Notes under the pieces: model-generated | Databases searched by the model: none | Seen by the model: only the letters and a program-made list of their open reading frames with translations | Told to the model about the DNA's origin: nothing | In this document: positions 33,330 to 52,439 of the stretch, one piece after another | Numbering within the stretch: position 1 is the first letter of the stretch | Layout: the number at the start of each line of letters is the position of its first letter | Origin: Armatimonadota bacterium | GTDB lineage: Bacteria > Armatimonadota > Fimbriimonadia > Fimbriimonadales > Fimbriimonadaceae | Assembly (NCBI GenBank): GCA_023392285.1 | Contig: JAEVZK010000091.1 | Location: 5,208-69,207 of the forward strand | Reading direction: 5' to 3' | DNA: 64,000 bases | Translations under genes and position numbers: made by a program

Positions 33330-33333
33330 TTCC

Positions 33334-34458
33334 ATGGCGATCATTGAGAGTGGAGGCTATATCAAGCGATTGAACGAGCCTCGAATCGATGGAATTGAAG
33401 CCGAGCTGGTGCCCGACTTCAACTTCGTTTCATTGAAACCGAAGCCGGTCGGCATTTCCCCTGCCCGGCTGCGCATGCTGTGGCATGACGGCACCAAGCC
33501 CTCCGGCGCTTCTCTCCGCATTTCGTCGGAGGACGGCAAAAGCCGTAAGTTCAGAATTTGGGTGGAGAGCTCTGATAATCGTTTCCGACCCAATTGGATT
33601 CGTTGGGCGCTTCCCACTCGTCAAGCTCGGGAGCTCAGCGGAGGAGATTCGCTGGTCGCCCAGGATGAGCTGTTTCAAGACGACCAAGTGATGAATTTGA
33701 TGGTGACGGCGGGGGAGACCCGATCCGTCACGCTCGAGTTCGTAGCGAATCTCGATGGATTCACTCCGACCGGAGATTTTCCGTTCGAAATAGTGATTCA
33801 GGACATTACCGACAGCGCCAACGGTAACGCCGGAGTGCATCGGGTCAACGGGACGCTCTGCCTCACTCATCCAGATTCAAAGATCTTAAATGATCTGCCC
33901 GCCCTCTATCGCGAGGCTCTCTGGGATATGCGGGATGATGTGGCGGGGTATCAGGACCCGCCCTTCTTCGAGCGATTTCTGCTCGGTTTCGAAGATGTGG
34001 TCGAGCCGCTGCAGCAGACGCTCGATCAACTGGATCGACTCTTTGGGCCCTACTCGACGCCGCCTGATTTCGTGCTCTGGCTGGGCGCTTGGGTGGCGAT
34101 GCCGCTCGATGAGAATTGGCCCGAGATGCGTCGTCGGAAGCTAGTCAAGGAAGCGGTCAACCTCTACCGATGGCGCGGGACCAAAAAGGGCCTTTCGCGC
34201 TACCTCGAAATTTACTGCGGAGTTAAGCCAGACATTCACGATCAGCCAGTCGACGGCATGAAGCTAGGCCCTGACAACAAGCTCGGTTCAAAGACGGCGA
34301 CTCTTGGAAATGTGCCGCCGCACACCTTTGTGGTTACGGTGGCCATACCGGATTCAGAAAAAATAAAGGAGCAAACGATCCACGACATTATTCGCTATGA
34401 AAAGCCCGCTCACACCGCCTATGCGCTGCGGGTTATCAGACAAGGGAGAGGGGAATAA
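33334..34458 (+). CDS. Phage-tail-protein-I-like baseplate wedge protein (Afp12-like) with an N-terminal Ig-like domain
   Basis: ATG at 33334 (MAIIESGG), 4 nt after the baseplate J stop. C-terminal LPALYRE...FFERFLLGFEDVVEPLQQTLDQLDRLFGPYSTPPDFVLWLGAWVAMPLDENWPE..RRKLVKEAVNLYRWRGTKKGLSRYLEIY matches the P2 gpI-type tail protein domain. Confidence 0.8.
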   Translation: MAIIESGGYIKRLNEPRIDGIEAELVPDFNFVSLKPKPVGISPARLRMLWHDGTKPSGASLRISSEDGKSRKFRIWVESSDNRFRPNWIRWALPTRQARELSGGDSLVAQDELFQDDQVMNLMVTAGETRSVTLEFVANLDGFTPTGDFPFEIVIQDITDSANGNAGVHRVNGTLCLTHPDSKILNDLPALYREALWDMRDDVAGYQDPPFFERFLLGFEDVVEPLQQTLDQLDRLFGPYSTPPDFVLWLGAWVAMPLDENWPEMRRRKLVKEAVNLYRWRGTKKGLSRYLEIYCGVKPDIHDQPVDGMKLGPDNKLGSKTATLGNVPPHTFVVTVAIPDSEKIKEQTIHDIIRYEKPAHTAYALRVIRQGRGE

Positions 34459-34461
34459 ACC

Positions 34462-35622
34462 ATGCCGATAGAGGAACTTATTTCGCGCCGAATTACCGGC
34501 ATATCACCATTTAACGAACTGCCGATCGATGCCGACATCTGGCGCGAGGCTCACGGGCACCACCATACCCACCGGCACCTTCACTCGGTTTCTGTACACC
34601 GTCCGGGCATCGTCTATGGTCTGGAAGTCGTGGTCTCGAAAAAGGATCGTACGCTTGTGGTTGCTCCCGGAGTAGGCATCGACAGCGACGGCAACACGCT
34701 GCTGCTCAGCGAACCGGCTACGTTTTTGATGGAAGAGAAAGGGCAGCTTTACATCACGATCTCGTACGAGGACAACGTCGACAGCAAGTCGGCGGTGACC
34801 GTCGGCGGGGGCAAGAAATATTTCCGCTTGGTCGAGGGCCGTCAGGTGATCGCTACCAAGGATCTGCCGAAAGGCGCTTATCTCGAGTTGGCTCGAATCG
34901 ATCGGTCTGGCAAAGACAAGCCCATCAAGGAGGCCGCCAATCCGTTCGATCCGGCCGAGGACGAGTTGAACCTCCTATATCGCCAGCAAGCGTTTCCTGC
35001 GTGCTACGCAGATGGCGGCATTGGCGAGGTCGTCTTCCTGCCAAAGTCCGATCCATCTGCATGGAAGCCGAATCGGGCTGGACTTTACGGCTTGGTTCGT
35101 GAGGCGAATGGCTGCGGATTTCATCTTGATTTCAGCGGTCTCTACAATCTTCGAGCGCCGGGTCCGGAAATGCCGATATTTCTCTATGTAGCCTGTGCGG
35201 GCGATTTCCAGCCCCTTTCCGATGAGCAGGTGAGTGGGCTCAAGAAATACCTCGACAACGGGGGCACACTTGTGGCTGAAGCCAGTAAAGGAGATGCCGG
35301 TTTTGCGAAAGCTTTTGCGGATGTCTCGAAAAAAATCGGCGCAACGATGAAAAAAGTGGCGAAAGGAAGCCCGTTGCTGACGTCGCATCATATGTTTTCC
35401 GCGCCGCCGGCCGGAGCGCAGGATAAGGGCGAGGTTCAGGCAGATCTGGATCGAGGCGTGATCTTATCGACCTTCGATTACGGGGCGGCGTGGCAAGGCG
35501 AAGTGGCTAGCCCGGATGCAACGGATGCGCGAGATCGCATTCGTGCAGCCCAAGAATTCGGACATAACATCATTGCGTTCGCGGCCAAAAGGAAAAGGCT
35601 CAGCGAATTAGCTCGACTATAA
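34462..35622 (+). CDS. CIS-locus protein: N-terminal baseplate-associated-looking domain fused to a DUF4159-like C-terminal domain
   Basis: 386 aa. The C-terminal half (MPIFLYVACAGDFQPLSDEQVSGLKKYLDNGGTLVAEASKGDAGFAKAFADV...LLTSHHMF) resembles the DUF4159 pattern 'P.l.m.G...f.ls..E...Lr.YL..GG.l..D'. Confidence 0.5.
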   Translation: MPIEELISRRITGISPFNELPIDADIWREAHGHHHTHRHLHSVSVHRPGIVYGLEVVVSKKDRTLVVAPGVGIDSDGNTLLLSEPATFLMEEKGQLYITISYEDNVDSKSAVTVGGGKKYFRLVEGRQVIATKDLPKGAYLELARIDRSGKDKPIKEAANPFDPAEDELNLLYRQQAFPACYADGGIGEVVFLPKSDPSAWKPNRAGLYGLVREANGCGFHLDFSGLYNLRAPGPEMPIFLYVACAGDFQPLSDEQVSGLKKYLDNGGTLVAEASKGDAGFAKAFADVSKKIGATMKKVAKGSPLLTSHHMFSAPPAGAQDKGEVQADLDRGVILSTFDYGAAWQGEVASPDATDARDRIRAAQEFGHNIIAFAAKRKRLSELARL

Positions 35623-35631
35623 GGAAGATTA

Positions 35632-38160
35632 TTGAGGACAAGTCAGAAGAGAAGTTGGTCGAACCCGACTCCCGGCACCATACTGGATGTACCGCAGGGA
35701 GAAACGGCTGAAGTTCGGTTCACATGCAATAACGACCAGCAAAAGGTGGTTCGTTTTGAGCTGGAAGCTTCCGGCCTCGGTTCTTGGGCGCAAGCTACGA
35801 CCGAGCATGCAGTGGCCCCTTTCGATACTTCTGACCTGATATTCGAAATCACCCCGAAAGCGACCGCAGACCTCGGAGACTACTCCTTTACGGTGAGACT
35901 CACCTGCGGTGGCGATCTCGTCGAGCCACTTGGCGAACGGAATTTAATCCTTAGAGTCGTGGAAGGAGCGGCACCTGAGCCAGTCACTCCCGAGCCACCT
36001 GCTCCTGTTCCGGTGAGCGAACTCGCGCCGCCAGTTGAGGCGGAGAAGCCTAAACCCAAGGAAAAGAAGGCGGCGGCTGAAAAGCCGAAAGTTGAAGAAG
36101 AAGTCGCTAAGACTCCTAGAACCACTGGCCGAAAGAAGGCTGTCCCGGAAGAGTCGTCAGCAGTGAATGGTTCCACAGCGGTTCAGCCCCCGGTTCCGAC
36201 GCCCGATCCGCAACCCGAACCGGTACCGCCGATTCCGACCCCGGAGCCAATCCCGCCTACTCCTACACCAGAGCCGCCCTCGCCTCCAATCCCGGTTGCG
36301 GAGGAGCCGACCATCGTGGAGGAGGCACCCGTCGCTCCAGAGCCCGAGGTCAAGTTTGCGCCAGAACCCGAGCCCGAGCCGGAACCCAAATTTGCTCCTG
36401 AACCCGAACCTGAACCTGAACCTGAGCCGGAACCCGAACCCGTTTACACGCAGCCGGAGCCGGAAATCGTTTACGTCGAGGAGCCAAAGCCAGAGCCTGC
36501 GCCAGATCCGGTGCCCGTCTCCAGACCAGAGCCGAAGGTGGTGAAAGTCGTCGACCTTGGTCCACAGCAGGTGGCTTCGGCTCCGACCGCGTGGGAAGAA
36601 GAGGATGAACGGGCGCACAAGCTCCAAATTGAAGCCGATGCAATCGTAGGAAATCCCAAAGAGGGAACCACCATCTACGCCCGCCCAGGCGAAAAGGTGC
36701 TTGTTCGGTTTAGCATCAAGAACGAACAAGGTGGTGTGCGCACCTACGTCATTCAGGAGGATCGAGCTCTTCCTCACGAGTGGATCGCTCTGGTCCAGGA
36801 TCAAGTGAACATCACCCCAGGGGGAACCGGCGATGTCTCGTTTATCCTAACGCCGCCGCTGTCGGCTGAACCCGCCACTTATCCGTTCAACATTTCCTAC
36901 GGCATCCTTGGCCAGCCACTGACGCCGGTTTACCTCCAGCTCTGTGTGCAAGCCGCGCCCGCGGTGAGGTTGAAGGCAAAGGCGACCACTTCGCGCGTGT
37001 TCGTTCCGTTTGCGCGCTCGCCAGAATTCGATTTCGTGGTCGAGAGCCAGGGCAACGCCGACACCGCATACCGAATCGGCGTCAAGGATCCGCTCGCAGA
37101 GAAGGACGATAAAGGACGAACGAAGGGGCCGGACGACCTCTATGAAACGCCGACTTGGCGGTACATCTTCGATCGCGAGTTGGACACGCTTTCGTCTCCC
37201 AGTGCCAACCGCGCGCCAACTCCGGAGAACCACAAGATGAAGCTTGTGCGAAAGGGTGTTTGGTGGTTTGGCTGGGTCGAGAAGCATAAGATGAACGTCT
37301 CGGCGAGGCCGGTGACGGATCAGGAGAATGGGGGCAAGGTCGACAACTCGGTTGAGATCGTTGGTCGCCGATGGCGAATTTTCCCTCTGCCGGGTTTTCT
37401 GATGATTCCGCTACTCATCATTGCCTTTATCCTGATTGGTTCGGGTGCGGATAACCTACGTGTCACCAACGGAAAGATAAGCGACGACGGCTACTATTAC
37501 GTGGTGGGCGATAAGCTCGGTGACACGAACCTGCCGGTGAAGCTCAAATGGAATGCACCGTTCTATGCGTTCTTGAAGGGCAGCAAACTGGAGGCAGGAG
37601 CGGGCGCGCCGCTCGACATGAACCGGGGTAACGCAACCGATGTCGTCGCTCTCCAGGATTACGGCCAATCGAGGAAAATAACCTACAGCGTCGGTTCTAA
37701 GTTCTCTTGGGCCAGAAAGGAAGTTAATGTTCGGTTCGTCCCGCTGAAAACGGAGGGCCAGCTAGCGATTCTCGATGGAAACGGGGTCAAACAGGTTGGC
37801 GAGGCGAGCGAAGGCAAGATTGGTGAAGATCAGGTCCCGACGCGAGACCGCGAAATTGTGATTCCGGTAAAGAAGGGAGGCACGACTCGACTGAACTTTC
37901 GCAATCTCACTGGGGTGAAGGGCATAAACGGCCAGCAAGTTGTCTTGTGGACTTTGCATGCGCCCGAAGGATTCACGATCAACGACTTCTTGTATAAGAA
38001 TGGAGACAACCAGATTGTGAACCCAGCTGCGACGGTTACGGCCAAGATTCAGCACAACGATGACGGCCAAGTACCGGAGGACGGCGCGGTGTGGGAACTC
38101 ATGAGCACGGACAGCTACTATCAGCACTTAAAGATTCGATTCAAGGTGGTGGGCAACTAA
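35632..38160 (+). CDS. 842-aa mid-chain single-pass membrane protein: two Ig-like (CARDB/NEW3-like) domains split by a Pro-rich (PE)n linker, a TM helix, and a C-terminal beta-rich region
   Basis: TTG start and no N-terminal signal peptide. [12 protein letters not shown]...[13 protein letters not shown] and [13 protein letters not shown]...ATYPFNISY look like Ig-like domains. [12 protein letters not shown] is duplicated. The TM segment [22 protein letters not shown] is encoded at ~37384-37446. Confidence 0.6.
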
Positions 38161-40418
38161 TGAAGCTGCTTCACACCGAAGTCGATGTCGTGCCGGGGCG
38201 GAAGCCGCAGAAGCAGCCTCTTCCCGAGGGTTACGTCGGCGCGGGAACGGCCGTGCTGCGCATTACCAACACAACCCACCGGCAGAACGCGTACACGATC
38301 CGCCTGCGGTGCGAGGAACCCTACTGGCAGGATGCTTGGTATCAGCTCGCCGCCTTACCGCCTTCCGGAGGCGAGGAAAATCAGCCGCCGCCTGGAAAGC
38401 CGGACCAGCTTGGACCGCGCAATCAGTCGCTGACCATCTATGTCAAAGATGGTGGGACGCGGGATATCTTCATCTCCTATTTCGTTCCGGAAAAGAGCGA
38501 GTGCCGAGCGGGTGCCTATCCGGTCAAGGTCATCGTCGAAACTCGGATTTTGAGCGACGATCCTCAGGTGGCTCGACAGGAGCGAATCACCGAATTGCCA
38601 AGCACCGTCATCGTGCGGCCTTTTTACAAGTGGCAGGTGAGCTACTCGCCGGAAGAGCGAAAAGTCGGATTTTTTAAGCGTGGAAAGGAATTTGAGGTCG
38701 TCGTCGACAACCAGGGCAATGACTGGCTCTACTGCGACTTGAAGATGCCTCGACCCCAAAACGTGTTGGTGGAGACGCCCACGGCAAGAATGGCGGTGCC
38801 TCCTCCCGAGCCGGGCGCAGATTCGGTGAGGACGGTCCCGTTCAAAGCTACCAGCCGGGTTAAGACGATTCGGGGCAACACCCAAGCGCTGCCTTTGCCC
38901 ATCACGGTGCAGCGTGTGGACGCCCCCACGGTACCCCCGCTTCCCGAAGACGCAATGCTCGGGCCATCCGGGGCAAACGTCAAAGCGGCGGTGTGTCATT
39001 CGGAGACCACCGACGTTGGAGTTTCCGATGTTCAGCCGCAGCTGATGTATCATCCGCTGATTCCGGCCACCTTTATCGGCTTTTTCCAAGCAATCGGACG
39101 GAATATCAAGGCCCTAATCATTACGGTGATCGGCTTGATCATTGCCTGGAACATGGCCGTATTCTGCTATGAGTATTTCATCCGATCCATCAGCGAATTT
39201 CACTCGATGACGACTGAGGTTCAGTTGAACAAGGTGTTCTACGTGCGTGGGCGCAACTTACAAGGCTCGAAGATTATCGTCTTCGACGAGACCGGCAAGA
39301 ACCAGATCGGTGAGCCAATCACGCCTAAGTACACAACCGAGTCGATCACGAGCGATAAGGTAGGGGTCATCTTGACCGATCCCTCGCTCGATCATAAGAA
39401 GATTCGGATCGGCGCTCAGCGCTATGGCGCTTTCACGTTCCTTCGCGCTTTCCTGCCGATCGAGAAAGACCCTTCGGTTATCCAGGTGGGCAAGGAGACC
39501 GTCACCCGAGGAACGGCAGCCGGTTCGATCAGCCCGCAAATTCCGCCTGGACAGCCGTTGACGATCGGCGGAGCCAACTTCGGCGACGAGAAGGGCAAGG
39601 TCATGCTAAACGGAAACCAGGCACCCATCCTGAGTTGGACCGACGGCAAAATCACGGTCAAAGTGCCACAGGCCCTACAAGCAAGCGGTGAGTTGATTAC
39701 GGTGCTCGTGTTCGACCCGAGCAACAATCCGATCAACGTCTCGCCGAATCAATTCCAAGTGGCGCTGCCAGTTGAATCAACGGCGGGAACGACTGGCGGC
39801 GACGTGCCACCTCCCGACACCACGGCTGGATCAACCGGTGGCGCTCCCGACACGAGCACTGGCGGAACCGGTGGCGATCCGACCTCATCGGGCTCGACGG
39901 GCGGAACATCCGGTGGTTCAACCGGAACCACAGGAGTCTCTCTTACGCCTCCCAAGGGCTATGCTTCGCTTCTTCCGGATACTCGCGCTGCTTATGTGAA
40001 TGCGGTATCTCAGGCGAGCGGACCATCGGCTGGCCAACTGGCGATCAAGGCTTATGCACTCGCGTCGGTCGGTAAGCTGGACGACGCCAAGCAGGCACTC
40101 ATCCAATCGAATCAGAAGCTTGGGGATAAGAGCCAAGGAGTCGATGTCGCGCTCTTCTATCTGGCTCAAGCGCGTGTGGTTGAAAAGCTGAACCCAGACA
40201 AGGGAGATGCGGCCTACGCCGCCGCTGATGAGAAGGCGAATGCAGCCGCGCCAGGCTTCGCGTTCAACGACATCGCGATCGCTCGCTTCAAGATCAGCCA
40301 AGGTAAGTGGGGAGAAGCGCGAGCGCTTTTGACCAACGCGTCTCAAGGCAATCTCTCAGCTGCGGAAAAGGCGACTGTAAACAAGATGATGCAGCAGGTA
40401 CAGAGCCGGTCGCAGTAG
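38160..40418 (+). CDS. 752-aa mid-chain single-pass membrane protein: N-terminal Ig-like domains, TM helix, IPT/TIG-like domain, Gly/Thr/Ser linker, TPR-like C-terminus
   Basis: ATG 38160 overlaps the upstream stop (TAATG). The ORF-track start at 38091 lies inside the upstream gene. TM IKALIITVIGLIIAWNMAVFCYEYFI is encoded at ~39103-39183. IPT-like GQPLTIGGANFGDEKGKVMLNGNQAPILSWTDGKITVKVP. Linker STGGTGGDPTSSGSTGGTSGGSTGTTG. Confidence 0.6.
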   Translation: MKLLHTEVDVVPGRKPQKQPLPEGYVGAGTAVLRITNTTHRQNAYTIRLRCEEPYWQDAWYQLAALPPSGGEENQPPPGKPDQLGPRNQSLTIYVKDGGTRDIFISYFVPEKSECRAGAYPVKVIVETRILSDDPQVARQERITELPSTVIVRPFYKWQVSYSPEERKVGFFKRGKEFEVVVDNQGNDWLYCDLKMPRPQNVLVETPTARMAVPPPEPGADSVRTVPFKATSRVKTIRGNTQALPLPITVQRVDAPTVPPLPEDAMLGPSGANVKAAVCHSETTDVGVSDVQPQLMYHPLIPATFIGFFQAIGRNIKALIITVIGLIIAWNMAVFCYEYFIRSISEFHSMTTEVQLNKVFYVRGRNLQGSKIIVFDETGKNQIGEPITPKYTTESITSDKVGVILTDPSLDHKKIRIGAQRYGAFTFLRAFLPIEKDPSVIQVGKETVTRGTAAGSISPQIPPGQPLTIGGANFGDEKGKVMLNGNQAPILSWTDGKITVKVPQALQASGELITVLVFDPSNNPINVSPNQFQVALPVESTAGTTGGDVPPPDTTAGSTGGAPDTSTGGTGGDPTSSGSTGGTSGGSTGTTGVSLTPPKGYASLLPDTRAAYVNAVSQASGPSAGQLAIKAYALASVGKLDDAKQALIQSNQKLGDKSQGVDVALFYLAQARVVEKLNPDKGDAAYAAADEKANAAAPGFAFNDIAIARFKISQGKWGEARALLTNASQGNLSAAEKATVNKMMQQVQSRSQ

Positions 40419-40455
40419 TGTAACGCCTGCAAATTGCGGGCGTCTGGAAACTAGC

Positions 40456-42192
40456 ATGAAGGGGAACATGAGCAGAGAAGTTATGTCGCATCGATTGCGA
40501 TTGTGGATGGTTGCAGCATTGCTCTCCCTGTCCCTCTCGGCTCTGGCCGACAAGGCGGTTGTAGTCGGCGTGCAAGAGTATGCGCCACTCGTTGCGGCCA
40601 GTACGCTTCGGGGGTGCTTGAATGACGCGAACGCAGTCGCAGACGTGCTGCGCAAGAACAAGTTCGACGTCATTCAGCTATCGAACGAAAAGGCAACTCG
40701 CCAGGGGATCCTCGACACCCTCGCCGGATTGATTAAAACCTCCAAGGCGAGTGAACGCTTTGTGTTTTATTTTGCGGGACATGGCCGAAGAACGCCTCAT
40801 CCTGCCCTGATGCCTCACGATGCGACCAGTGATGGGAACGACATCACCACCGACGACCTGAATGCGGTGATCTCAAAGATTCCGGCGAGGAGCCGAACGG
40901 TCATTCTGGATGCTTGTTTCTCAGGCGGAATGGCGGCGGGTGAGATGGCGAGAGGCATCAAGGACGATGGGTTGACCGCGCGTTTTTATGAAGACGCCAC
41001 GGCTCAGGCGAGAAGTCTCGATTTCGGGCCAGCGAAAGCCCCGGTCAACAACCAGGACACCAATGCGAAGCTGGAGAATGGCTCGAACATCTGTTATTAC
41101 ACGGCCTGCACGAGCAACGAACAAGCGTTGGAAGGCTCCTTCGATGGTCAGCGGCACGGCCTGTTCACCTACGCCCTGCTCAGTAATCTGAAAGATGATT
41201 CGGAGCCTTGGGGTGAAGTGCATAACGGGGTCAAGACCCAAATGCAGGGCAAGCTGGAGAATACGGGACGCCAACAAAACCCGACGATTTCCAAGAACTA
41301 CCTAAACGCCCACGCGTTGGATAATGACATCGCGAAGCCGGTAGAACCGAAGCCAACCAAGACACTCATCGACGTCTGGAATTTAGAGAATCCTGATCCG
41401 AAGAAGATCTCACTAGAGCTCTCTCCGAATTCGAATGTTTACGAAGCGGGACGCAATATTGCGATGACCGCGACGGTTGGCCAAGAGGGCTACCTCGTCA
41501 TCTTGGGTGAAGTCGATGGCCACTACTACCAGTTCTTTCCCGCTGGCAAATTCGATCCCGACGACGCTCACGTCAAGGCGGGCAAAATTCCCTGGCCATC
41601 GCCGGGAAACGTTCTGTTTTTCGACAGCTTCGGGGCCAATCAGGTGAAGGCGATCCTCTTTTCCGATACTCAGAAGGCAGCTAAGCTGCTGGATGCGATG
41701 CGAGAGATGAACGGTGCCGCCGACATCAGCAACAAGGATCTGATTCTCACCCGATCTCTCAATGAGCCGGAATTCACCTCGCGCCTCAGCGTGGCGGTTT
41801 CGGACAATCTGGTCGGCGGGAGCCGGTTTAAAGACTTAAACGGCTTGATCAAAAAGGTGGCTGCCCAAGACGCGCCGCTGACAAAGCGGATATGGGAGTT
41901 GATGGGGCGGGTTGCGACCAGTAAGCCGCATCAGGATTGGATGGCGAACACGGATTTCAATCAGGAAATCACCTTAAAGTCACGTGGAGTTTTCGTGGCG
42001 CTCCTTAACCGTGTCCTGCAATCATTCCCGCTTTACGAGGAAGATGTGTTCCAGGGGATCAAACTCGACAAGAAGACTTCCGATCTGTTAAAGAAGAATC
42101 CAAAGGGTGACGATCTGATACGCCTGAATAGGCAACTTCTCGTCGCTGCTTTTCCTGCCGAAGTAAATCCCGACGAGGCGAATTCCAAATGA
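40456..42192 (+). CDS. Secreted caspase-family (peptidase C14) protease with a DUF4384-like domain
   Basis: 578 aa. Signal peptide LWMVAALLSLSLSALA. Catalytic dyad contexts FYFAGHGRR (His codon 40780-40782) and VILDACFSGG (Cys codon 40915-40917). DUF4384-like YEAGRNIAMTATVGQEGYLVILGEVDGHYYQFFP. Confidence 0.8.
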   Translation: MKGNMSREVMSHRLRLWMVAALLSLSLSALADKAVVVGVQEYAPLVAASTLRGCLNDANAVADVLRKNKFDVIQLSNEKATRQGILDTLAGLIKTSKASERFVFYFAGHGRRTPHPALMPHDATSDGNDITTDDLNAVISKIPARSRTVILDACFSGGMAAGEMARGIKDDGLTARFYEDATAQARSLDFGPAKAPVNNQDTNAKLENGSNICYYTACTSNEQALEGSFDGQRHGLFTYALLSNLKDDSEPWGEVHNGVKTQMQGKLENTGRQQNPTISKNYLNAHALDNDIAKPVEPKPTKTLIDVWNLENPDPKKISLELSPNSNVYEAGRNIAMTATVGQEGYLVILGEVDGHYYQFFPAGKFDPDDAHVKAGKIPWPSPGNVLFFDSFGANQVKAILFSDTQKAAKLLDAMREMNGAADISNKDLILTRSLNEPEFTSRLSVAVSDNLVGGSRFKDLNGLIKKVAAQDAPLTKRIWELMGRVATSKPHQDWMANTDFNQEITLKSRGVFVALLNRVLQSFPLYEEDVFQGIKLDKKTSDLLKKNPKGDDLIRLNRQLLVAAFPAEVNPDEANSK

Positions 42193-44315
42193 AGCGCTTG
42201 TTCTCTGCCCTTCTTGTGGCGCTTTCGGCCATCGCGACGGCGCAACAGGATCTGCCGAATCTCGTCGTCGATATGAATGATCGGCCCGCCGAACTCAAGC
42301 CGGTTATGCTCGAGTTGAATGAATATCTGGTGCCGTTGCGCCCGGCCGTCGAGTTGCTGACCGGAGGCAAAGGTGCCCTCGGAATCGACGGAAAGACTTA
42401 CACCATTAGCATCGATAACAAAGTGCTCGTCCGCATCCCTCAAGAAGGTGGGGGAAAGGAAGCCCTGATTTATTCCGAAACCGATTCGAATCCAGTGAGG
42501 CGGCTCTCCATGGAAGATTTCCCGCACGAGGTGATTACCAAGGAGCGGGGTCCAACGGCGATGGTCGACCTGGATTTGCTTGCCGCCTGCTTGGGAGTCA
42601 CCGTCGACATCGATGGCAAGCGGCTTTCGCTTTACACGACGGATTACTGGTGCGGAAAAATCGGCATCAGCGCGGACAAGGTTGAAAATCGGCTGCAGAA
42701 AGGAATCGCGCTCGTACCCGACTTTGGAGTGTCGCCACCAGCGAAAACATTGCTCTTCTGGGTCAGGCCACCCGTCACGTCGTACGTTCAGGCGTTTCGG
42801 TTGAATGACAACGCGCCGGAGCCCATGCTTGGCATCAATGCGCTGGATGACGAGGTCGATATCCTGACTCCGGGGAACCGTCCGAAGATGCGCCAAGCCG
42901 ACCAGCAATCGCCGATCAGAGCGGAAACCTACAACTATGGGTCGGAAGTGGGCAAGGTGGCCACCTACGTCGCGGTGGTCCTGAAGAAGGATGTTGGAAT
43001 GGCAAGCCCGATCGAAGCGATCAATTCAGGGGCCGCAGGCGACGATTGGGCGGTGATCGGAATCCGTCAGCGCGTCGGACGGATGCCGATCCTTTTTGAA
43101 AATCGAGAAGTCTTGCCAGGGGAAGACATCGGTGCCTTTGCGACTCGAAACAAGACGACGCCCTCGGTGATTAAATCCGTGAACGGCCTGCGGACTGGTG
43201 AGAAATTACGTCCCAAATCAAAGTTGGCGGTCATTGTTGGCTTGGATGAAAACGCGATTAGGCTGATGCAAGCCGCACCGTTCAAGATCACTGGACTTTA
43301 TGAGGTTCAGCCGGGCGAAACTCTCAAGGACCTCGCTCACTCCTGGGGTGTGAGCGAAGATGAAATATTAGCAGCGAATACTACTATTCCTCCAGGAGGC
43401 GAACCTGAACCTGGCGATCTGATCAACGCGATCGCAAAGGATGCTCCCTCCAATCCAGGCAATCCCAACCCGCAGCCCGTTAACCCTTCGATCGCCAAGA
43501 ACGAATCGGTCGCCTTTATGGGCACTGCGGTTGCCACTGCGCCACTCCAGCTTCGGGAGACATCAGTAGCTGGCTCTACGGTCGTTGGCTCGGCGCCCAA
43601 GAATACATTCGTCGAGCTCGTCGGCTACATGCCGGCTCAGCAGATGTATCGAGTGCGAATCGACGGCGGAGTGATTGGTTATGTTCCTGCCAGTTCCCTG
43701 CGTGTTCGCGCTGGAAGCGGGGGCGCAACGGTCGTTGCGGCGAACATCAATCCCTCCAATAATCCGGTTGCGAACGAAGCTCTCAAGTATTTGGGAACCC
43801 CCTATGTTTGGGGAGGCAACGGCCTGACCACCGGCATCGACTGCTCGCACTTCGTCGCTCAGGTGTATACAAGGATAGGCTGGCCCGCTCCGCCCGCTCC
43901 GGTCACGACTCAGGAGACCATCGGCGACATCGTTCATTACAAGCCGGGACAAGCGCGTCGAGCGGGTCGAACGATCATCCTCCCCAATGCGGTGGTCGCA
44001 CCGCGTGCTTCACCCGACCTGAGAACCTTGCAGCCGGGCGACCGAATTATCTTTCAACGTGGCAACACGGATGCGTCAGGTACGCGCCACACGGCTATTT
44101 ATATCGGACGAGTCCCACCTGCCTGGCAGAAAAAATTCGGCGATATTCCGTGGGCATTCGTTCATGCCTCCTCATCCCGAGGCGTCACCGTCAGCAGCCT
44201 CACTCAAAAATATTATTGGAATATCTATAAATTTAGCTGCCGCAGCGCTCACCGCAAGACCGTTGCATCCACTCCTGACGAGGCCATTGCATCCGCGATG
44301 TTGGGTGGCAAATGA
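42189..44315 (+). CDS. Secreted multidomain peptidoglycan hydrolase: amine-oxidase-N-like stalk, LysM, SH3b, NlpC/P60 (C40) peptidase
   Basis: 708 aa. Signal peptide MKRLFSALLVALSAIATAQQ. LysM YEVQPGETLKDLAHSWGVSEDEILAAN. SH3b-like TFVELVGYMPAQQMYRVRIDGGVIGYVPASSL. NlpC/P60 YLGTPYVWGGNGLTTGIDCSHFVAQVY (Cys codon 43842-43844), HTAIYIG and FVHAS. The start overlaps the caspase stop (ATGA). Confidence 0.85.
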   Translation: MKRLFSALLVALSAIATAQQDLPNLVVDMNDRPAELKPVMLELNEYLVPLRPAVELLTGGKGALGIDGKTYTISIDNKVLVRIPQEGGGKEALIYSETDSNPVRRLSMEDFPHEVITKERGPTAMVDLDLLAACLGVTVDIDGKRLSLYTTDYWCGKIGISADKVENRLQKGIALVPDFGVSPPAKTLLFWVRPPVTSYVQAFRLNDNAPEPMLGINALDDEVDILTPGNRPKMRQADQQSPIRAETYNYGSEVGKVATYVAVVLKKDVGMASPIEAINSGAAGDDWAVIGIRQRVGRMPILFENREVLPGEDIGAFATRNKTTPSVIKSVNGLRTGEKLRPKSKLAVIVGLDENAIRLMQAAPFKITGLYEVQPGETLKDLAHSWGVSEDEILAANTTIPPGGEPEPGDLINAIAKDAPSNPGNPNPQPVNPSIAKNESVAFMGTAVATAPLQLRETSVAGSTVVGSAPKNTFVELVGYMPAQQMYRVRIDGGVIGYVPASSLRVRAGSGGATVVAANINPSNNPVANEALKYLGTPYVWGGNGLTTGIDCSHFVAQVYTRIGWPAPPAPVTTQETIGDIVHYKPGQARRAGRTIILPNAVVAPRASPDLRTLQPGDRIIFQRGNTDASGTRHTAIYIGRVPPAWQKKFGDIPWAFVHASSSRGVTVSSLTQKYYWNIYKFSCRSAHRKTVASTPDEAIASAMLGGK

Positions 44316-46030
44316 GACGGCTGTTCCTACTCGCGGCCTTGGCGTTATCGGCGTGGGCTGGAGCGGAGCGGTATGCGATCTTGGTCGCGGTCGACAGCTA
44401 TCCTATCATCAAACCGCCGCAGCGGCAGCTCTCGGGCTCCGCCTATGACCTTCGCCTAATGGGCAAGATGATGGAGTTCTATAACTTCCAGGTGACCCAG
44501 CTTGCTCGCGGTGATGCGACGCGAGGAAAGATCATCGAGCAGATGTCTCTGCTGCAGCCTAAAATCAAGGCTGGAGATGAGGTGGTGTTTTACTTCTCGG
44601 GACGCGGGTCCGTCGCTCCACCAGTCGACGCTCCGAAGGCGAAGGTAAATTTCGAGCCGACGATCGTGCCCTATGACGGAAAGGAAACGGTCGTCGATTA
44701 CGACATCCGCATGAGCCGCCTCGAAGATTGGGCGAAGTCGATCGCCGAGCATGGCGGGAATGTCACCTTCATCATCGACGCGAGCTTCCAGTCGATTGCA
44801 CGAGACGACGTTGGCCGTCCATATAACCCGACCCCGCGCACACTTACCCGCAAGTCGACCTCCGACGGAGCGGTCCGCGACAAGCCTTACATGGGCCCTG
44901 GAATCTATCTCGGAGCTGTTCCAACCGGCGGCAGTGCGTACGAGTACCTCGTGAACACAAGCAACAACACTTGGGCAGGAGCCTTCACCGACATGCTCGT
45001 GAACGAGGTGATCAGCAAACTGCGAAACGGAGAATCTCCCACCTACTCGTCCGCCATGCGGGAGATTGAAGCGTATTTCAAAGATAAAGTCCGCCAAGAC
45101 TACATGCCGGGTTTGGCACCCTACCCCTTCACGAAAACTTTGGTGGAAGAGGCGCAGACCTATGACCGCCCCTTGTTCGGTGGCCTCAACCCGCAGACCG
45201 TGCCGCCGCCTCAGCAAGCCGAAATTCAGCATATGGACGAGGATCGGAAGGCCCGTGAGCGGAAGCTCCGCATCGGGCTAAGCTTTCCGGCGGTCCGCGA
45301 CAGGGCGTCCACCCGTGGAGACGGGTTGGAGGATGGCCGTGATCCGAAGCTGGTAGAAGACTTCACCAAGAGCGTGAGCGCGAATCTTCCTTATGCCGAG
45401 GTCGTTCCGGTTGGCGCGCCGGTGGACACCGTGGTCGCTTTTGTCAAGCAGGCCAATGGATCGTTCGAGGCTCGCATATTTGGTGACGAGGTCGATCAGA
45501 AGCGCAATCTTCGCTTTCCGGGAGCGAACGTCGAGCAAATGATGGCGGCTGGACTACGCGATCAGCTGGAACGGCAGGCACTTACGGTGAAGCTCTTCAA
45601 GCTGATCGATGAGGGCAAAGGAACCCTCGACGGTGTAGATCTTAGCGTGGAAAAAGACACCTATGCGCCATCGGATCGCTTTGCGCTTCACTTTAAGACC
45701 GGTGCCCCATCCCTCCTTTACGTCTTCGATCGAGACGATGCGGATGGCATTACTCAACTCACCTTCCCAACGATGGGCGCGACCGAGAATCTGCTTCCTG
45801 CGGGAGGCCGCGATTTCACGCCCATGATTGCGGAAGGCAGCCCCACCGGGAAAATGATGGTCAAGGGTCTCTTCGTCGAACCGTCCCCCGACCTTCCCTC
45901 CATCGAGGGGACCGATGAAAAGACGTTCAACGAAAATCTGCTCAAACACCTTCGAGCGCTAGTGCCCTTGATCGAGGGGAACAAGCTGAAATGGTTTGCC
46001 AAGGAAATTAGCCTCACGATCAAGCCGTGA
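44312..46030 (+). CDS. Secreted caspase-fold paralog with a substituted catalytic dyad (pseudo-caspase) and a DUF4384-like domain
   Basis: 572 aa. Signal peptide MRRLFLLAALALSAWAGA. Same architecture as 40456..42192, but His->Arg (FYFSGRGSV, codon 44603-44605) and Cys->Ser (FIIDASFQS, codon 44783-44785). The start overlaps the upstream stop. Confidence 0.7.
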   Translation: MRRLFLLAALALSAWAGAERYAILVAVDSYPIIKPPQRQLSGSAYDLRLMGKMMEFYNFQVTQLARGDATRGKIIEQMSLLQPKIKAGDEVVFYFSGRGSVAPPVDAPKAKVNFEPTIVPYDGKETVVDYDIRMSRLEDWAKSIAEHGGNVTFIIDASFQSIARDDVGRPYNPTPRTLTRKSTSDGAVRDKPYMGPGIYLGAVPTGGSAYEYLVNTSNNTWAGAFTDMLVNEVISKLRNGESPTYSSAMREIEAYFKDKVRQDYMPGLAPYPFTKTLVEEAQTYDRPLFGGLNPQTVPPPQQAEIQHMDEDRKARERKLRIGLSFPAVRDRASTRGDGLEDGRDPKLVEDFTKSVSANLPYAEVVPVGAPVDTVVAFVKQANGSFEARIFGDEVDQKRNLRFPGANVEQMMAAGLRDQLERQALTVKLFKLIDEGKGTLDGVDLSVEKDTYAPSDRFALHFKTGAPSLLYVFDRDDADGITQLTFPTMGATENLLPAGGRDFTPMIAEGSPTGKMMVKGLFVEPSPDLPSIEGTDEKTFNENLLKHLRALVPLIEGNKLKWFAKEISLTIKP

Positions 46031-46059
46031 TGCAATAAACTACGAGATAGAGGATATTC

Positions 46060-47205
46060 ATGCTAAAGAGGATTTTATTGGCGGGCATTCTGGCGGCTTT
46101 AACGCTGCCCGTATTCGCCGCGCCACAGCAGGACAACAGTGCCAAGTACAAGTCGGCAATCGCATGGCTCCATAAGCTGGAGCCGCAATTTTCCGCAGAG
46201 ACCAAGGAAATGGTTCCGTCGATCGAAGCGATCTTGGAACGGTATTACATGCATCCGGATGAGCTTCGGGCGAGCGAAAAGTCAATTGCAGAAGCTTTTA
46301 TCGCCACGATGCCTGAGGAAGGGGATGGCTTAAGCGGTCGAGGCTCAGCCGAAGATCGCATGAAGGAATTTGAGGGCTTGCTCGGCTCTTCTGCTCCGAA
46401 GCCAGCACCCGCAAAGGCGCCGGTAAAGAAGCCTGCGAAGAAGACTACGGCAAAGAAGCCGCCTGTGAAGAAGCCAACGCCGCCGGTGGTTCGCCGCCCA
46501 AGTACGGCCAAGTTCAAAATTCCAGGCATCACGGTACGGCCAAGCTTCAGTGCGGTGGAACGAGCCGCTCCTGGCGGCAGCCGCATCGGCGCGGTGATGG
46601 TGTCGATCGATGGCCGCAAGAAAACCGTGATCGAAATTTTGTCTCAGTCGGGTGGACTTTCTCTTCAGAAGCGAGCTCAAATAGTTGCCAATCGAATGAC
46701 CGCTCTGTCGAAGAAAAATCCGCTTTGGTGGACCACGGTTAAGGGTGGCACCGCCAAAGGGGAGGCGGTCGTCCTTGCCAGCGGTGCCCCAAGCGGATTT
46801 CTGGTGACGGCGGACAAGCAGTTTGCAAGTGAATGCGGAATGTCGCCTTCGAAGCTGGCATCCACGCTCGCGATGAAGATCCGGAATACTTTTGACCCTG
46901 ACCGCGGGGACGACTTTGGCGGGCGAGATACGACTCCGGAGGATCTGCGGCAAGCCGCGATCGACTTGCGTCAAGAAGGCGACGAACTCTATTCGACCTC
47001 TCCTGCCCAGGCGGAATCCAAATATCTGGCGGCAATTCAGAACGATTCGTCGTATCACCTCTCTTATTTGAGGCTTGCGGACATGTACAAGTCGCAGGGC
47101 AACACGGAGAAAGCCAAGGCCATCCTAAACCAAGGTATGGCGGTTGCGGCGATTACCGGCGAACAGCGCCAGGAACTCGAAGCGAAGCTAAAGAGTTTAG
47201 GCTAA
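46060..47205 (+). CDS. Secreted protein with a Lys/Pro-rich linker and TPR-like C-terminus
   Basis: 381 aa. Signal peptide ILLAGILAALTLPVFAAP. Linker KPAPAKAPVKKPAKKTTAKKPPVKKPTPP. C-terminal TPR-like YLAAIQNDSSYHLSYLRLADMYKSQGNTEKAKAILNQG. Confidence 0.6.
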   Translation: MLKRILLAGILAALTLPVFAAPQQDNSAKYKSAIAWLHKLEPQFSAETKEMVPSIEAILERYYMHPDELRASEKSIAEAFIATMPEEGDGLSGRGSAEDRMKEFEGLLGSSAPKPAPAKAPVKKPAKKTTAKKPPVKKPTPPVVRRPSTAKFKIPGITVRPSFSAVERAAPGGSRIGAVMVSIDGRKKTVIEILSQSGGLSLQKRAQIVANRMTALSKKNPLWWTTVKGGTAKGEAVVLASGAPSGFLVTADKQFASECGMSPSKLASTLAMKIRNTFDPDRGDDFGGRDTTPEDLRQAAIDLRQEGDELYSTSPAQAESKYLAAIQNDSSYHLSYLRLADMYKSQGNTEKAKAILNQGMAVAAITGEQRQELEAKLKSLG

Positions 47206-47229
47206 CAACCCAAGCGCGTTTTGACATTT

Positions 47230-47262
47230 AGCCCCGTTCCTGCAACGGGGCTATCCTTTTAA
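47230..47262 (+). terminator. Rho-independent terminator closing the long plus-strand gene array
   Basis: Perfect 9-bp stem AGCCCCGTT (47230-47238) / AACGGGGCT (47244-47252), 5-nt loop, followed by ATCCTTTTAATT. Confidence 0.65.
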
Positions 47263-50277: not shown

Positions 50278-51057
50278 CTACTTCGCAATGTTTCCACAGA
50301 TTGAGGGTGAAAAGTTCTCCTGAGTGAAGGGCAGCGTAAGGTTGACTTGGTGACCAATGGGCACAAATCCGAGCGAAGCGTACAGCTTCGGAGCGGTTGC
50401 CGAAAGCCAGACGAGAGGCTCTCCCGTGCCGAAGGCGTGAGCAAGGAGCAGTTCGCAGGCCTGCCGTGCGAGCCCCCGCCCCCGGAACTTCGGCCGAGTC
50501 GCCACGGAAACCAGCTCCATCACGTCCCCTTCGATGGTGAGCATCGCGCTCGACGCAGGTTCCCCGTCATGCCTGAGAAGCGCCGCTACCAGGTTCCCCC
50601 CTCGAATCCGTTCCAATCGACGATTTACCGCGCTCTGGTCCACTTCGAACGGATGGCCAAACGCCTCCGCTTCGATCATGGCCACTTGGATCATTTCATC
50701 TTGGGTAGAAACTGGGCGAGCGGAAGAATTCTTGGCAATGACCGGACGATCGCAGATCATCAAGGGCAGCCTCATTTCGGCGAGAAAGCCTTCACTTAGG
50801 AGCAATCGGTTGACATCCGGCCAGAGCGGCTCAAGCAACTCGACTCTTGGAGTTTTGCCACGTGACCGAAAGGCCTGCACCATCTGACAAACCTCTGCCG
50901 GAGAACTCGATTCTTTTACTGGTACGGCGAAGTTCGTCCATGGGCGGTCTGAACCGGCCAGCTGCATCAGGTGGAACGCGCCGACATCGAAATGTTCTCG
51001 ATCTCGCCTCCCCGCCGAAATCATCGATTGATTCAGGCGGAGCAGCAGATCGCGCAT
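50278..51057 (-). CDS. GNAT-family N-acetyltransferase
   Basis: 259 aa. Acetyl-CoA motif VSVATRPKFRGRGLARQACELLLAHAF. The start overlaps the dnaA stop by 1 nt (TGATG). Confidence 0.8.
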   Translation of the reverse strand: MRDLLLRLNQSMISAGRRDREHFDVGAFHLMQLAGSDRPWTNFAVPVKESSSPAEVCQMVQAFRSRGKTPRVELLEPLWPDVNRLLLSEGFLAEMRLPLMICDRPVIAKNSSARPVSTQDEMIQVAMIEAEAFGHPFEVDQSAVNRRLERIRGGNLVAALLRHDGEPASSAMLTIEGDVMELVSVATRPKFRGRGLARQACELLLAHAFGTGEPLVWLSATAPKLYASLGFVPIGHQVNLTLPFTQENFSPSICGNIAK

Positions 51058-52439
51058 CAGAATTCGCGATGGAGCGTATTGATGAGCATCTTCACGGCTG
51101 ACTTGAGATCGTTGTCGCGGAGCATCATCTCGTTGACCCGGTTATAGCCATGCATCATCGAAGTGTGGTCCCGATCGCCAAATAGGTGGCCGATGTGCTT
51201 CCAGGAATCTTTGGTGAGCTCGCGGGTGACGAAAATCGCCACATGGCGGGCATGAACGATCGGAGCCTTTCTGGAAGAACCCTGAATGTCCGAACTTGGA
51301 ATCTTATAGTGTCGGCTTACCGCCTCGACGATCTCTTGGAAGCCCGGCTTTTCGGTGATTTCGCGTGAATAGTCTTTCTCGATTAAGGTTTCCGCCGATT
51401 GCTTGGTGATCGGCTGGTGATAAACGCTCGATTCCACCGCCAGCTTCGTCATCGCTCCCACTAGGCGACGGATATTTCCCGGCACATTCTCAGCGAGATA
51501 CATCGCCACTTCGAGAGGAAGTTGAACCGCCTCCTGCTTGGCCTTGGACATCAGAATGGCGCAGCGCGTCTCGGTATCCGGCATCTGAATGTCGGCGACC
51601 AAACCCGCTTCGAACCGAGAACGAAGTCGCTCATCCATGAGGTACAGGTCGCGAGGGGGCCGATCGGACGTGAGCACGATCTGCTTACCCAGGCTTTGCA
51701 GGTGGTTGAACGTATGAAAGAATTCTTCCGATGTCTTGGTTTTCTCGGCGATGAATTGAATGTCATCGATGAGCCACAGGCTGACGTTCCGCTGCTGTCG
51801 CCGGAAGGATTCGATTCTATTGTTCTGCAGCGCTTGGATAAAGCCTTCCGCAAACTGTTGAGCCGTGATGTAGACGAGAGAAAAATTCGGTACCCGGCCC
51901 TGAATTTCTCGAGCAATCGCATGCAGTAGATGGGTCTTGCCAACCCCAGACGCACCATAGATGAAGAGCGGATTGTATTTCTTACCGGGATCGGAGGCGA
52001 CGTTCTTCGCGCCAGCAAAGGCAAGCCGATTACTTTGCCCCACGATGAACGATTCGAATGAATACCGATCGTTCGGAATGAAGACTTCTTTCTCCGGGGC
52101 GGGAGCGGGCATGCTGATGGAAGAATTCTTCTCGACTCCGTTCTTCTCGCGAAGCTCAAGGTTGAGCTCGATCATCACCGCCATGCCAAGCTCGTCGCCT
52201 AAATAATTTTGAAGAATATTGAGATACCGCTCTCGCACCCATTCCAACACGAACCGCCCTGGAACGGCGATTTTGACCTGCGTCCCGTCGACGCCAAGGG
52301 GTCGTAACGGTTTTAGAAAACGTTCAAACCACTGGGGCGGCACGTCGGGAGACAGCCTTCGGAGGGTGTTCTGCCAAGCTTGTTGTAATCGGATGTTGTC
52401 GGGTGAATCATCAAAGGAATACTGGTCTCTCATCTTCAC
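51057..52439 (-). CDS. dnaA: Chromosomal replication initiator protein DnaA
   Basis: 460 aa. Walker A GASGVGKTHLLHAI, DDIQFIAEKTKTSEEFFHTFN, sensor/box VII SDRPP, and the C-terminal DNA-binding region RKAPIVHARHVAIFVTRELT...HTSMMHGYNRV. Confidence 0.95.
   Translation of the reverse strand: MKMRDQYSFDDSPDNIRLQQAWQNTLRRLSPDVPPQWFERFLKPLRPLGVDGTQVKIAVPGRFVLEWVRERYLNILQNYLGDELGMAVMIELNLELREKNGVEKNSSISMPAPAPEKEVFIPNDRYSFESFIVGQSNRLAFAGAKNVASDPGKKYNPLFIYGASGVGKTHLLHAIAREIQGRVPNFSLVYITAQQFAEGFIQALQNNRIESFRRQQRNVSLWLIDDIQFIAEKTKTSEEFFHTFNHLQSLGKQIVLTSDRPPRDLYLMDERLRSRFEAGLVADIQMPDTETRCAILMSKAKQEAVQLPLEVAMYLAENVPGNIRRLVGAMTKLAVESSVYHQPITKQSAETLIEKDYSREITEKPGFQEIVEAVSRHYKIPSSDIQGSSRKAPIVHARHVAIFVTRELTKDSWKHIGHLFGDRDHTSMMHGYNRVNEMMLRDNDLKSAVKMLINTLHREF

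Follow-up and report, generated by a model that had tools for sequence, protein, structure and literature searches.

Predicted periplasmic caspase, pseudo-caspase and TPR proteins, with a cell-wall hydrolase in Fimbriimonadales, at the 3′ end of a contractile injection system locus of Armatimonadota

What are a caspase, a peptidoglycan hydrolase, a catalytically dead caspase and a tetratricopeptide repeat (TPR) protein, all four predicted to leave the cytoplasm, doing at the end of a gene cluster for a contractile injection system (CIS)? The question is raised by a 64,000-nucleotide stretch of DNA, hereinafter the window, from an Armatimonadota bacterium of the family Fimbriimonadaceae (assembly GCA_023392285.1, contig JAEVZK010000091.1, positions 5,208 to 69,207 of the forward strand), in which the CIS genes are followed by the four genes g1 to g4 (40456–47205). 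An earlier note on this DNA had described the four as a module appended to the CIS operon, and proposed that they constitute a protease-gated lysis or wall-remodeling device that opens the wall for the release or firing of the CIS. Our analysis indicates that the module belongs to this CIS lineage as a conserved 3′ block and that the CIS itself is kin to the cytoplasmic cell-death system of Streptomyces, and it leads us to a tentative reading in which the caspase pair and the TPR protein act as a periplasmic switch.

The four genes are co-directional open reading frames (ORFs) on the + strand, at exactly the coordinates 40456–47205 given earlier. The last CIS gene, here termed Y, stops at 40418, and the first ATG of g1 (40456..42192) lies at 40456; the spacer of 37 nt between them (40419..40455) is devoid of a terminator-like hairpin. 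Further in-frame ATGs occur at 40468 and 40483, the second of which may be the true start of g1. The genes g2 (42189..44315) and g3 (44312..46030) each overlap the preceding gene at an ATGA sequence, which couples g3 translationally to g2, and a spacer of 29 nt separates g3 from g4 (46060..47205). The only strong terminator-like hairpin is an intrinsic terminator at 47229..47253 on the + strand, which closes the CIS and module operon with a 10-bp stem containing 6 GC pairs, followed by a TCCTTTTAAT T-tract; the remaining matches are weak and occur at the frequency expected from shuffling (18 found versus 18.4 expected). Near 40.4 kb, a scan of the + strand that does not cover non-canonical promoters gave no sigma70-like site. 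The layout described in the earlier note, namely a module starting 37 nt after the last CIS gene, ATGA overlaps among its first three genes, 29 nt to the fourth and no terminator before about 47230, was thus confirmed by the sequence.

Is this arrangement peculiar to one genome? Phylogenetic co-occurrence with the CIS, set beforehand as the test by which the link could be refuted, proved positive in 15 distinct Fimbriimonadales loci. An alignment of the Y family was used to scan one genome per GTDB species, yielding 31 loci, and all the proteins of the window were mapped onto these. In each Fimbriimonadales locus with sufficient downstream DNA, g1, g2 and g3 follow Y in the same direction, and usually g4 does so as well. 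The pseudo-caspase family prototyped by g3 comprises 35 clusters at 90% identity, 33 of which are close relatives. Four divergent pseudo-caspases (32–42% identity) on long contigs are embedded in the gene order Tail_P2_I, DUF4159, X, Y, caspase, NlpC/P60, pseudo-caspase; a TPR gene comes next in three of these four loci, an unmatched 216-aa gene takes this place in the fourth, and the downstream neighbors of the four are unrelated to one another. Likewise, a metagenome scan with the N-terminal domain of g2 returned five places, and all five lie behind the same CIS genes. With duplicates counted once, the 15 loci display Cis12, DUF4159, X, Y, g1, g2 and g3 in this order without exception, followed by g4 where it is detectable. 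This synteny holds at pseudo-caspase identities down to 28–32%, and the flanking genes downstream are different in every case examined. In 11 of the 12 loci measured, Y and g1 are −4, 0, 5, 8, 15, 30, 37, 41, 59, 85 or 88 nt apart. Hence, in light of the linkage in 15 loci, the tight Y–g1 gaps and the confinement of the N-terminal domain of g2 to this context, the module is an integral part of this CIS lineage, conserved as its 3′ block, and neither a chance neighbor nor a recent appendage; to call it “appended” is misleading.

The first module gene, g1, codes for a 578-aa C14 metacaspase-type protease, predicted to be exported, whose DUF4384-like domain is weak and whose C-terminus is helical. 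Its Peptidase_C14 domain (PF00656) is recovered by Pfam with E=1.5e-26 (94 bits versus a cut-off of 21.4) and by the PADLOC “caspase” model with 5.6e-16. The dyad of His109 (40780–40782, in AGHG) and Cys154 (40915–40917, in DACFSG) aligns with the SGHG and DSCHSGG motifs of AtMC4, and both residues, as well as an L.GCxND motif common to AtMC4, are present in all 11 orthologs. With this dyad intact, g1 is predicted to be an active caspase. The L.GCxND motif plays a role in the S1 pocket of metacaspases; AtMC4 is Arg/Lys-specific, and a basic P1 specificity may be expected for g1 as well. As in the orthocaspases and metacaspases at large (PMC6426788, PMC5756287), g1 has the p20 His–Cys dyad and, like the Arg/Lys-specific AtMC4 among them, the L.GCxND motif; g1 and g3 differ from these enzymes in their predicted Sec-dependent export to the periplasm and in sharing an operon with a CIS and a peptidoglycan hydrolase.

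The third gene, g3, encodes a 572-aa pseudo-caspase, also predicted to be exported, which is a paralog of g1 (E=1e-8) with a clear Peptidase_C14 match (PF00656; E=1.3e-11, 45 bits versus the cut-off of 21.4). At the two dyad positions it features Arg98 (44603–44605) in place of the His and Ser158 (44783–44785) in place of the Cys. All 11 orthologs share the His-to-Arg substitution, and the Cys position is occupied by Ser in seven of them, by Ala in two and by Cys in two. The invariance of the His-to-Arg substitution suggests that the dead g3 is under selection, which in turn points to a partner with a regulatory or scaffolding role. A His-to-Arg change is likewise found in cFLIP-L, a pseudo-caspase that acts on caspase-8 as a regulator through heterodimerization. 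Pairs of active and inactive orthocaspases are also described for cyanobacteria (PMC6426788, PMC5756287). As in these, g3 is a dyad-substituted paralog of an active enzyme, but it features Arg/Ser (or Arg/Ala in orthologs) as against the Tyr/Ser reported there for cyanobacteria. Among the anti-phage defense models of PADLOC, only the generic “caspase” one matched, in g1 and g3, with no match for g2, g4, X or Y; neither PADLOC nor PHROGs gave a match to a defined system.

Between the two caspase-like genes, g2 codes for a 708-aa protein predicted to be an exported NlpC/P60 peptidoglycan endopeptidase. It combines a family-specific N-terminal domain of about 280 aa (aa ~20–300), a degenerate LysM (aa ~303–350) found by comparing the profile of the N-terminal domain with the Protein Data Bank (PDB), a further LysM (aa 371–410; E=1.3e-10 in Pfam, above the curated cut-off), a weak SH3b match (SH3_3, aa 453–504; 4.2e-4, 20.9 bits, below the cut-off of 27) and an NLPC_P60 domain (PF00877, aa 536–677; E=4.4e-11, 43 bits versus a cut-off of 23). 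Cys552, specified by the TGC at 43842–43844, aligns with the catalytic Cys of 4xcm, and His634 and His659 complete the triad; across 11 orthologs the Cys and the first His are invariant, and the third residue is a His in nine and an Asp in two. By these residues g2 would be an active NlpC/P60 enzyme, and the LysM domains together with the sub-threshold SH3b match support peptidoglycan as its likely substrate, with the gamma-D-Glu-mDAP bond of the stem peptide, or a related one, as the candidate for cleavage. In PHROGs, the catalytic domain is nearest to the phage tail-associated “minor tail” NlpC/P60 lysins (phrog_329, E=1e-16). An exhaustive HMMER search with residues 21–300 against 1.84 billion proteins recovered only 40 representative clusters, the distant carriers of this N-terminal domain retaining the LysM and NlpC/P60 architecture. 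The profile of this domain detected nothing in the PDB beyond the degenerate LysM, and the only hint as to the fold is a remote family member with Cu_amine_oxidN1. Thus, the functional assignments made at the outset for the active caspase, the active NlpC/P60 enzyme and the pseudo-caspase are all consistent with the catalytic residues and the Pfam matches; in the case of g2, the LysM and the catalytic Cys at 43842–43844 hold up, and the SH3b domain that had also been claimed is present only as a match below the threshold.

The last of the four, g4, is a 381-aa protein, predicted to be exported, with a four-part architecture: a helical bundle (aa 23–107), a basic Pro/Lys linker (110–152), an alpha/beta domain (155–280) and three TPRs (293–380). 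Its AlphaFold2 (AF2) model has a predicted local distance difference test (pLDDT) score of 79, and the linker is disordered in it. The TPRs are sub-threshold in Pfam (E=1.6e-3) but are backed by the AF2 model, by Foldseek matches to TPR proteins and by TPR_19 in orthologs. A Foldseek search with the model recognized the TPRs alone, and neither the helical bundle nor the alpha/beta domain. The linker is basic, Pro-rich and free of acidic residues in 20 out of 20 family sequences, and it is plausibly either a substrate for a protease that cuts at basic residues or a polyanion-binding tether. The N-termini of all four module proteins present a positive n-region, a hydrophobic core and an AxA or VxA before the predicted cut; by this heuristic judgment, the signal peptides that had been ascribed to all four are borne out. 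These leader features clearly recur in the orthologs of g1, g2 and g4, and several g3 orthologs have ambiguous start codons. A diderm envelope is in keeping with the gene for a beta-barrel outer-membrane protein downstream of the module and with a gene for a secretin in a sister locus, in which case the Sec-exported g1 to g4 would be periplasmic.

Several loci (L003, 12879–15470; L004, 12694–15012; L008, L010, L013 and L040) feature a fifth module gene coding for an exported caspase-PEGA protein of 770–860 aa with intact GHG and DACFSG motifs. It is missing from the window and its closest relatives, L007 and L038, where the module runs directly into a gene for a VTT-domain protein. About 4 kb downstream of the module in the window lies dnaA (51057–52439, −); the CIS cluster would accordingly be situated near a probable replication-origin region in the source genome, as well as in L001 and L002.

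What kind of machine does the module accompany? The cluster upstream of it codes for a sheath, two gp19 tubes, a tube-LysM protein, VgrG, PAAR, gp25, Baseplate_J, Tail_P2_I and eCIS_core proteins, and is a real CIS. The nearest solved relatives of the sheath (1.9e-130), Cis11 (3.5e-116, over its full length) and Cis12 (1.7e-17) are 8bky/9gtp/9gts, the next-best systems being far weaker. These structures are those of CIS-Sc from Streptomyces coelicolor, the identifiers being confirmed in PMC12237407. According to that report, CIS-Sc forms free-floating cytoplasmic particles that undergo stress-induced firing linked to cell death, with CisA being required; this bitopic protein, its N-terminus cytoplasmic and its extracytoplasmic domain sensor-like, acts as a checkpoint for firing (PMC12237407). 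The system in the window differs from CIS-Sc in its diderm host and in featuring, instead of CisA, two large Ig-domain membrane proteins, X and Y. By prediction, these have the topology shown for CisA, in which a large N-terminal part without a signal peptide is followed by a C-terminal domain outside the cytoplasm. Moreover, Cis12 (Tail_P2_I; 33298–34458, +) has 386 aa as against 190 aa in CIS-Sc, which implies that it is extended N-terminally by about 215 aa, and the position of Cis13 is occupied by a DUF4159 protein (34462–35622, +), with only a weak N-terminal match to CIS13_fam (19.9 bits versus 370).

A second point of comparison is the thylakoid-anchored CIS (tCIS) of Anabaena, in which the CIS is held in the membrane of its producer by proteins at the Cis12/Cis13 positions, an extension of Cis12 mediating the anchoring, and acts on stress (PMC8894136). 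The ghost cells associated with it lose their outer membrane and peptidoglycan by an unknown route (PMC8894136), which suggests that removal of the wall accompanies the function of a membrane-anchored CIS. The tCIS is much more distant in sequence from the system in the window (sheath 9e-46, Cis11 1.7e-7), and it differs in its thylakoid anchoring and in that no dedicated wall hydrolase or caspase is reported in its cluster (PMC8894136). The defining genes of classical extracellular CIS (eCIS) of the Afp/PVC type are not apparent: tblastn with the homologues from L034 and L021 as queries found neither Pvc16_N/Afp16 nor an Afp15-type AAA ATPase in the 64-kb window, outside of which they could lie, and the tail-fiber match is only the weak one noted above. 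In the Armatimonadaceae (L034, 6511–9441) and Capsulimonas (L021, 13555–16159) loci, a Pvc16 gene and an AAA ATPase gene directly follow Y; in Fimbriimonadales these two genes must lie elsewhere or be missing. [quoted passage not shown] Taken at the level of sequence, this CIS resembles the cytoplasmic systems that engage a membrane, as their relative in a diderm host, and not a released eCIS.

Three ORFs of the CIS cluster, all on the + strand, merit mention. A 2140-aa protein (17154–23576) features an eCIS_core/DUF4157 domain at aa 881–954 (E=7.6e-26), the rest of it having no Pfam match; as DUF4157 is a reported marker of eCIS-associated toxins, this protein is the likeliest cargo or effector of the CIS. 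A 695-aa ORF (11699–13786) directly upstream of the sheath gene, and an ORF of 1164 aa (24382–27876) between the second tube gene and the tube-LysM gene, in the position of a tape measure, have no match in Pfam, NCBIfam or PHROGs.

The two membrane proteins encoded just ahead of the module are candidates for its point of contact with the machine. X (35632..38160, +) is an 842-aa protein, predicted to be bitopic, with one conserved transmembrane helix at about aa 583–601 that has RRWR on its N-terminal side; its C-terminal 240 aa or so form a periplasmic domain. It is conserved ahead of Y in the loci that reach far enough upstream. Its presumed cytoplasmic part includes some 200 aa (aa ~95–300) of low complexity rich in Pro, Glu and Lys, with PEPEPEPEP runs; this stretch is not conserved between loci, and the flanks on both sides of it are. 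Y (38160..40418, +; alternative GTG start at 38091) is a 752-aa protein, likewise predicted to be bitopic, for which the AF2 model (pLDDT 85) shows two N-terminal beta-sandwiches, a transmembrane helix (aa 305–344), two periplasmic TIG-like beta-domains (TIG in Pfam, E=3e-8), a flexible Gly/Ser/Thr linker and, at the C-terminus, a TPR-like repeat. No paralogy between X and Y could be detected. A single transmembrane helix is predicted in 34 of 36 aligned members of the Y family. The family keeps the N-terminal 70% and, as in the homologs P0063, P0064/P0065 and P0101, swaps the C-terminus among TIG/TPR, YARHG, the peptidoglycan-binding PASTA and, in one case, TIR. This TIR domain is unexpected on the presumed periplasmic side. 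Given that X and Y both lack an N-terminal signal peptide and, for Y, that extracytoplasmic PASTA and YARHG domains occur in homologs, an N-in/C-out topology is a reasonable one for both.

How far does the association reach beyond Fimbriimonadales? The Chthonomonadales, Capsulimonadaceae and Armatimonadales retain Cis11, Cis12, DUF4159, X and Y. A C14 caspase lies beside Y in seven of the ten other-order loci with at least 3 kb of downstream DNA, the other three ending at contig borders, and a g4-like gene is present in five loci, outside Fimbriimonadales usually right after Y and on the opposite strand. The caspases come in diverse configurations: WD40-caspases with signal peptides (L024, L030 and L035), 1400–1500-aa proteins with a C-terminal caspase domain, encoded beside a LuxR-type regulator (L017 and L031), a caspase adjoining a WD40 gene (L027), and three tandem caspases after Pvc16_N and the AAA ATPase (L034, 9526–14766). 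We claim intact Cys motifs only for L024, L030, L027, the L034-576 protein and the fifth-gene caspase, as insertions broke the hmmalign column mapping elsewhere. The L034 caspases are exported, and at least one has a Cys-to-Ser substitution (DTSFSG) and a twin-arginine-like leader (SPRRRF); based on this DTSFSG protein, the pairing of active and dead caspases appears to recur outside Fimbriimonadales. In the Chthonomonadales loci L017 (13566–19766) and L031 (14167–20095), a LuxR/GerE-type regulator of about 540 aa and the giant caspase protein are encoded on the opposite strand, and the two may represent a regulatory arm of the same system. Since caspase and g4-like genes are found in other orders without g2, the association of caspase and g4-like proteins with this CIS is phylum-wide and the hydrolase an addition of Fimbriimonadales. 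Contigs with the Armatimonadota-type CIS are also filed under unrelated taxa, namely L024 (a Janthinobacterium lividum metagenome-assembled genome) and P0023/P0121 (Chlorobia bacterium); such labels probably reflect binning or labeling errors in the source genomes.

What, then, might the module do? As this CIS is close kin of the Streptomyces cell-death system, the module probably controls or carries out the breaching of the wall for the CIS. More specifically, we propose, with a probability of roughly 45%, that g1, g3 and g4 constitute a periplasmic proteolytic switch tied to X and Y, which in Fimbriimonadales is coupled to the wall-breaching, peptidoglycan-tethered g2. Under this proposal, the CIS would be assembled in the cytoplasm and would engage the inner membrane via the bitopic X and Y, the C-terminal domains of which would reach into the periplasm. 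There, the g1 protease, its dead paralog g3 and the TPR adaptor g4 would form a regulated proteolytic switch associated with X/Y. In Fimbriimonadales, this switch would be coupled to g2 as an NlpC/P60 endopeptidase tethered by LysM/SH3b, which, when released or activated, would cut the stem peptides of peptidoglycan. The wall would thus be breached at or after the firing of the CIS, resulting in regulated lysis or cell death and/or exposure of the machine. Published parallels are the firing checkpoint CisA, the loss of outer membrane and peptidoglycan in the Anabaena ghost cells, and TagX, a peptidoglycan endopeptidase encoded in a T6SS cluster and required for T6SS transit (PMC5061870). The lysis or remodeling idea of the earlier note finds support in part, from the co-occurrence and the integrity of the enzymes; release of an eCIS is less likely than envelope-side control and breaching of the wall, in view of the kinship with CIS-Sc, of X and Y, and of the lack of Afp15/Afp16 in the window.

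Several observations weigh against this proposal. No cleavage site was identified for the presumptive protease, and the signal peptides as well as the topology of X and Y rest on heuristics, with the positive-inside rule being ambiguous for Y. For the Y model, Foldseek returned no CIS component, the matches being tandem arrays of Ig-like domains of a generic kind (hydin, cadherins). In L003, the twelfth of the 12 loci measured, the Y–g1 gap widens to 330 nt, so that an internal promoter is possible. Among the 31 mapped loci, no g2/NlpC-P60 homologue is detectable in those from outside Fimbriimonadales; as the other orders have caspases without g2, gating of the hydrolase cannot be the general, the ancestral or the only role of the caspases. 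Finally, Armatimonadota genomes may be rich in C14 paralogs.

The proposal also has to be set against other accounts of the same genes. One of these, which we regard as unlikely, holds that an X/Y-anchored CIS fires outward non-lethally, as a T6SS does, with g2 opening the sacculus locally for its transit and the caspase pair and g4 restricting or maturing g2. The predicted bitopic nature of X and Y, the encoding of a peptidoglycan hydrolase inside the cluster and the affinity of its catalytic domain to the phage tail-associated phrog_329 family would all suit such a role, for which TagX of the Acinetobacter T6SS (PMC5061870) offers a precedent: like g2, it is a stem-peptide-cleaving hydrolase encoded in the cluster of a contractile machine, it is required for transit through the envelope, and its sole active form is the one of lower mass, suggesting activation by processing. 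However, TagX is a membrane-anchored LAS metallopeptidase (L,D-endopeptidase) of a canonical T6SS, whereas g2 is a large, soluble Cys–His NlpC/P60 protein with LysM/SH3b, a leader predicted to be cleaved, a unique N-terminal domain of 280 aa and caspases as partners. Moreover, CIS-Sc, a cytoplasmic system that kills when it fires, is nearest to the core proteins, Pfam shows no T6SS family in X or Y, and the other orders make do without g2. The absence of the hydrolase from sister orders with the same CIS also tells against a lysis cassette that would release a classical eCIS, with the producer being lysed and the free particles reaching target cells. We consider this improbable, although lysis is the way in which eCIS are set free (PMC8213781), and the module runs in the direction of the CIS genes and, by its sequence, codes for an active wall hydrolase. 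As in the lysis cassettes of phages and tailocins, a wall hydrolase is here combined with a phage-tail-derived machine, and lysis of the producer is a possible outcome; but the PHROGs families of holins, endolysins and spanins are not represented, g2 matching only an NlpC/P60 family of the tail category, and the accessory families are different ones. The proteins are Sec-exported, multi-domain and 380–710 aa in length, unlike those of such cassettes, no Afp15/Afp16 homologue is seen in the window, the Cis13 tail-fiber match is weak, and X and Y argue for engagement of the membrane by the producer’s own CIS.

Two other accounts detach the module from the working of the machine inside its producer. 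That g1 to g4 are effectors or toxins delivered into target cells is very improbable. Toxins associated with eCIS do cluster at the 3′ ends of operons and include peptidoglycan hydrolases and peptidases (PMC8213781), but Sec leaders on all four proteins imply exit from the cytoplasm, where the CIS is loaded, and the DUF4157/eCIS_core marker is located neither on nor beside g1 to g4 but on the 2140-aa protein. Furthermore, neither a dead enzyme that is conserved nor a TPR adaptor resembles a toxin, and the order of the g1–g4 block is conserved, where toxin cargo is usually variable. That the module is an unrelated envelope-maintenance operon, kept beside the CIS through shared ancestry only, is also decidedly improbable. 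The restriction of the complete module to one order would be in keeping with it. Against this, the linkage holds even where identity has fallen to about 30% and the flanks downstream have been replaced, the gaps are tight with some of the genes overlapping, the N-terminal domain of g2 was never seen in another context, and caspase and g4-like genes recur, rearranged, beside the same CIS in three other orders.

Full-text searches, in a literature of which the coverage is incomplete, found no published link of a CIS with a caspase, with Armatimonadota or with DUF4159, and the pairing, which was not known to the earlier note as described, accordingly has no published description that we could find. 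Large CIS surveys (including PMC8213781) make no mention of caspases, NlpC/P60 or Armatimonadetes, and the exported caspase/hydrolase/pseudo-caspase/TPR module is absent from the accessible parts of the CIS-Sc paper and of the CIS surveys. To the extent that such silence can be taken as evidence, we appear to be dealing with a CIS-Sc-like system equipped with a previously undescribed periplasmic caspase/pseudo-caspase/TPR accessory module, with or without NlpC/P60. One may go further, in what is a speculative and rather doubtful extension, and envisage a CIS-Sc-type “suicide” machine placed throughout the phylum under a periplasmic caspase switch: here, the active caspase, its cFLIP-like dead paralog and the TPR adaptor would read the state of the envelope and license the recruitment and firing of the CIS by cleaving the periplasmic parts of X/Y or the linker of g4, Fimbriimonadales having added a caspase-released wall hydrolase as the executioner. 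If true, a caspase checkpoint outside the cytoplasm would here be found for the first time on a contractile machine, and bacterial caspases would be tied mechanistically to regulated cell death.

CIS-Sc and the tCIS indicate that some CIS act inside their producer and are tied to regulated cell death; what triggers their firing and how the wall is removed are the questions that this locus addresses. It offers genetically tractable candidate answers in the form of two bitopic anchors, an exported set of protease, pseudo-protease and adaptor and, in one order, a wall hydrolase. The presence of cultured relatives, namely Fimbriimonas, Chthonomonas and Capsulimonas, with one of the loci labeled Chthonomonas calidirosea, renders the hypothesis testable. 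By the same token, the bacterial caspase homologues, the physiological substrates of which are mostly unknown, would be assigned to a definite machine as their partner, and the candidates for their substrates would be narrowed to a few.

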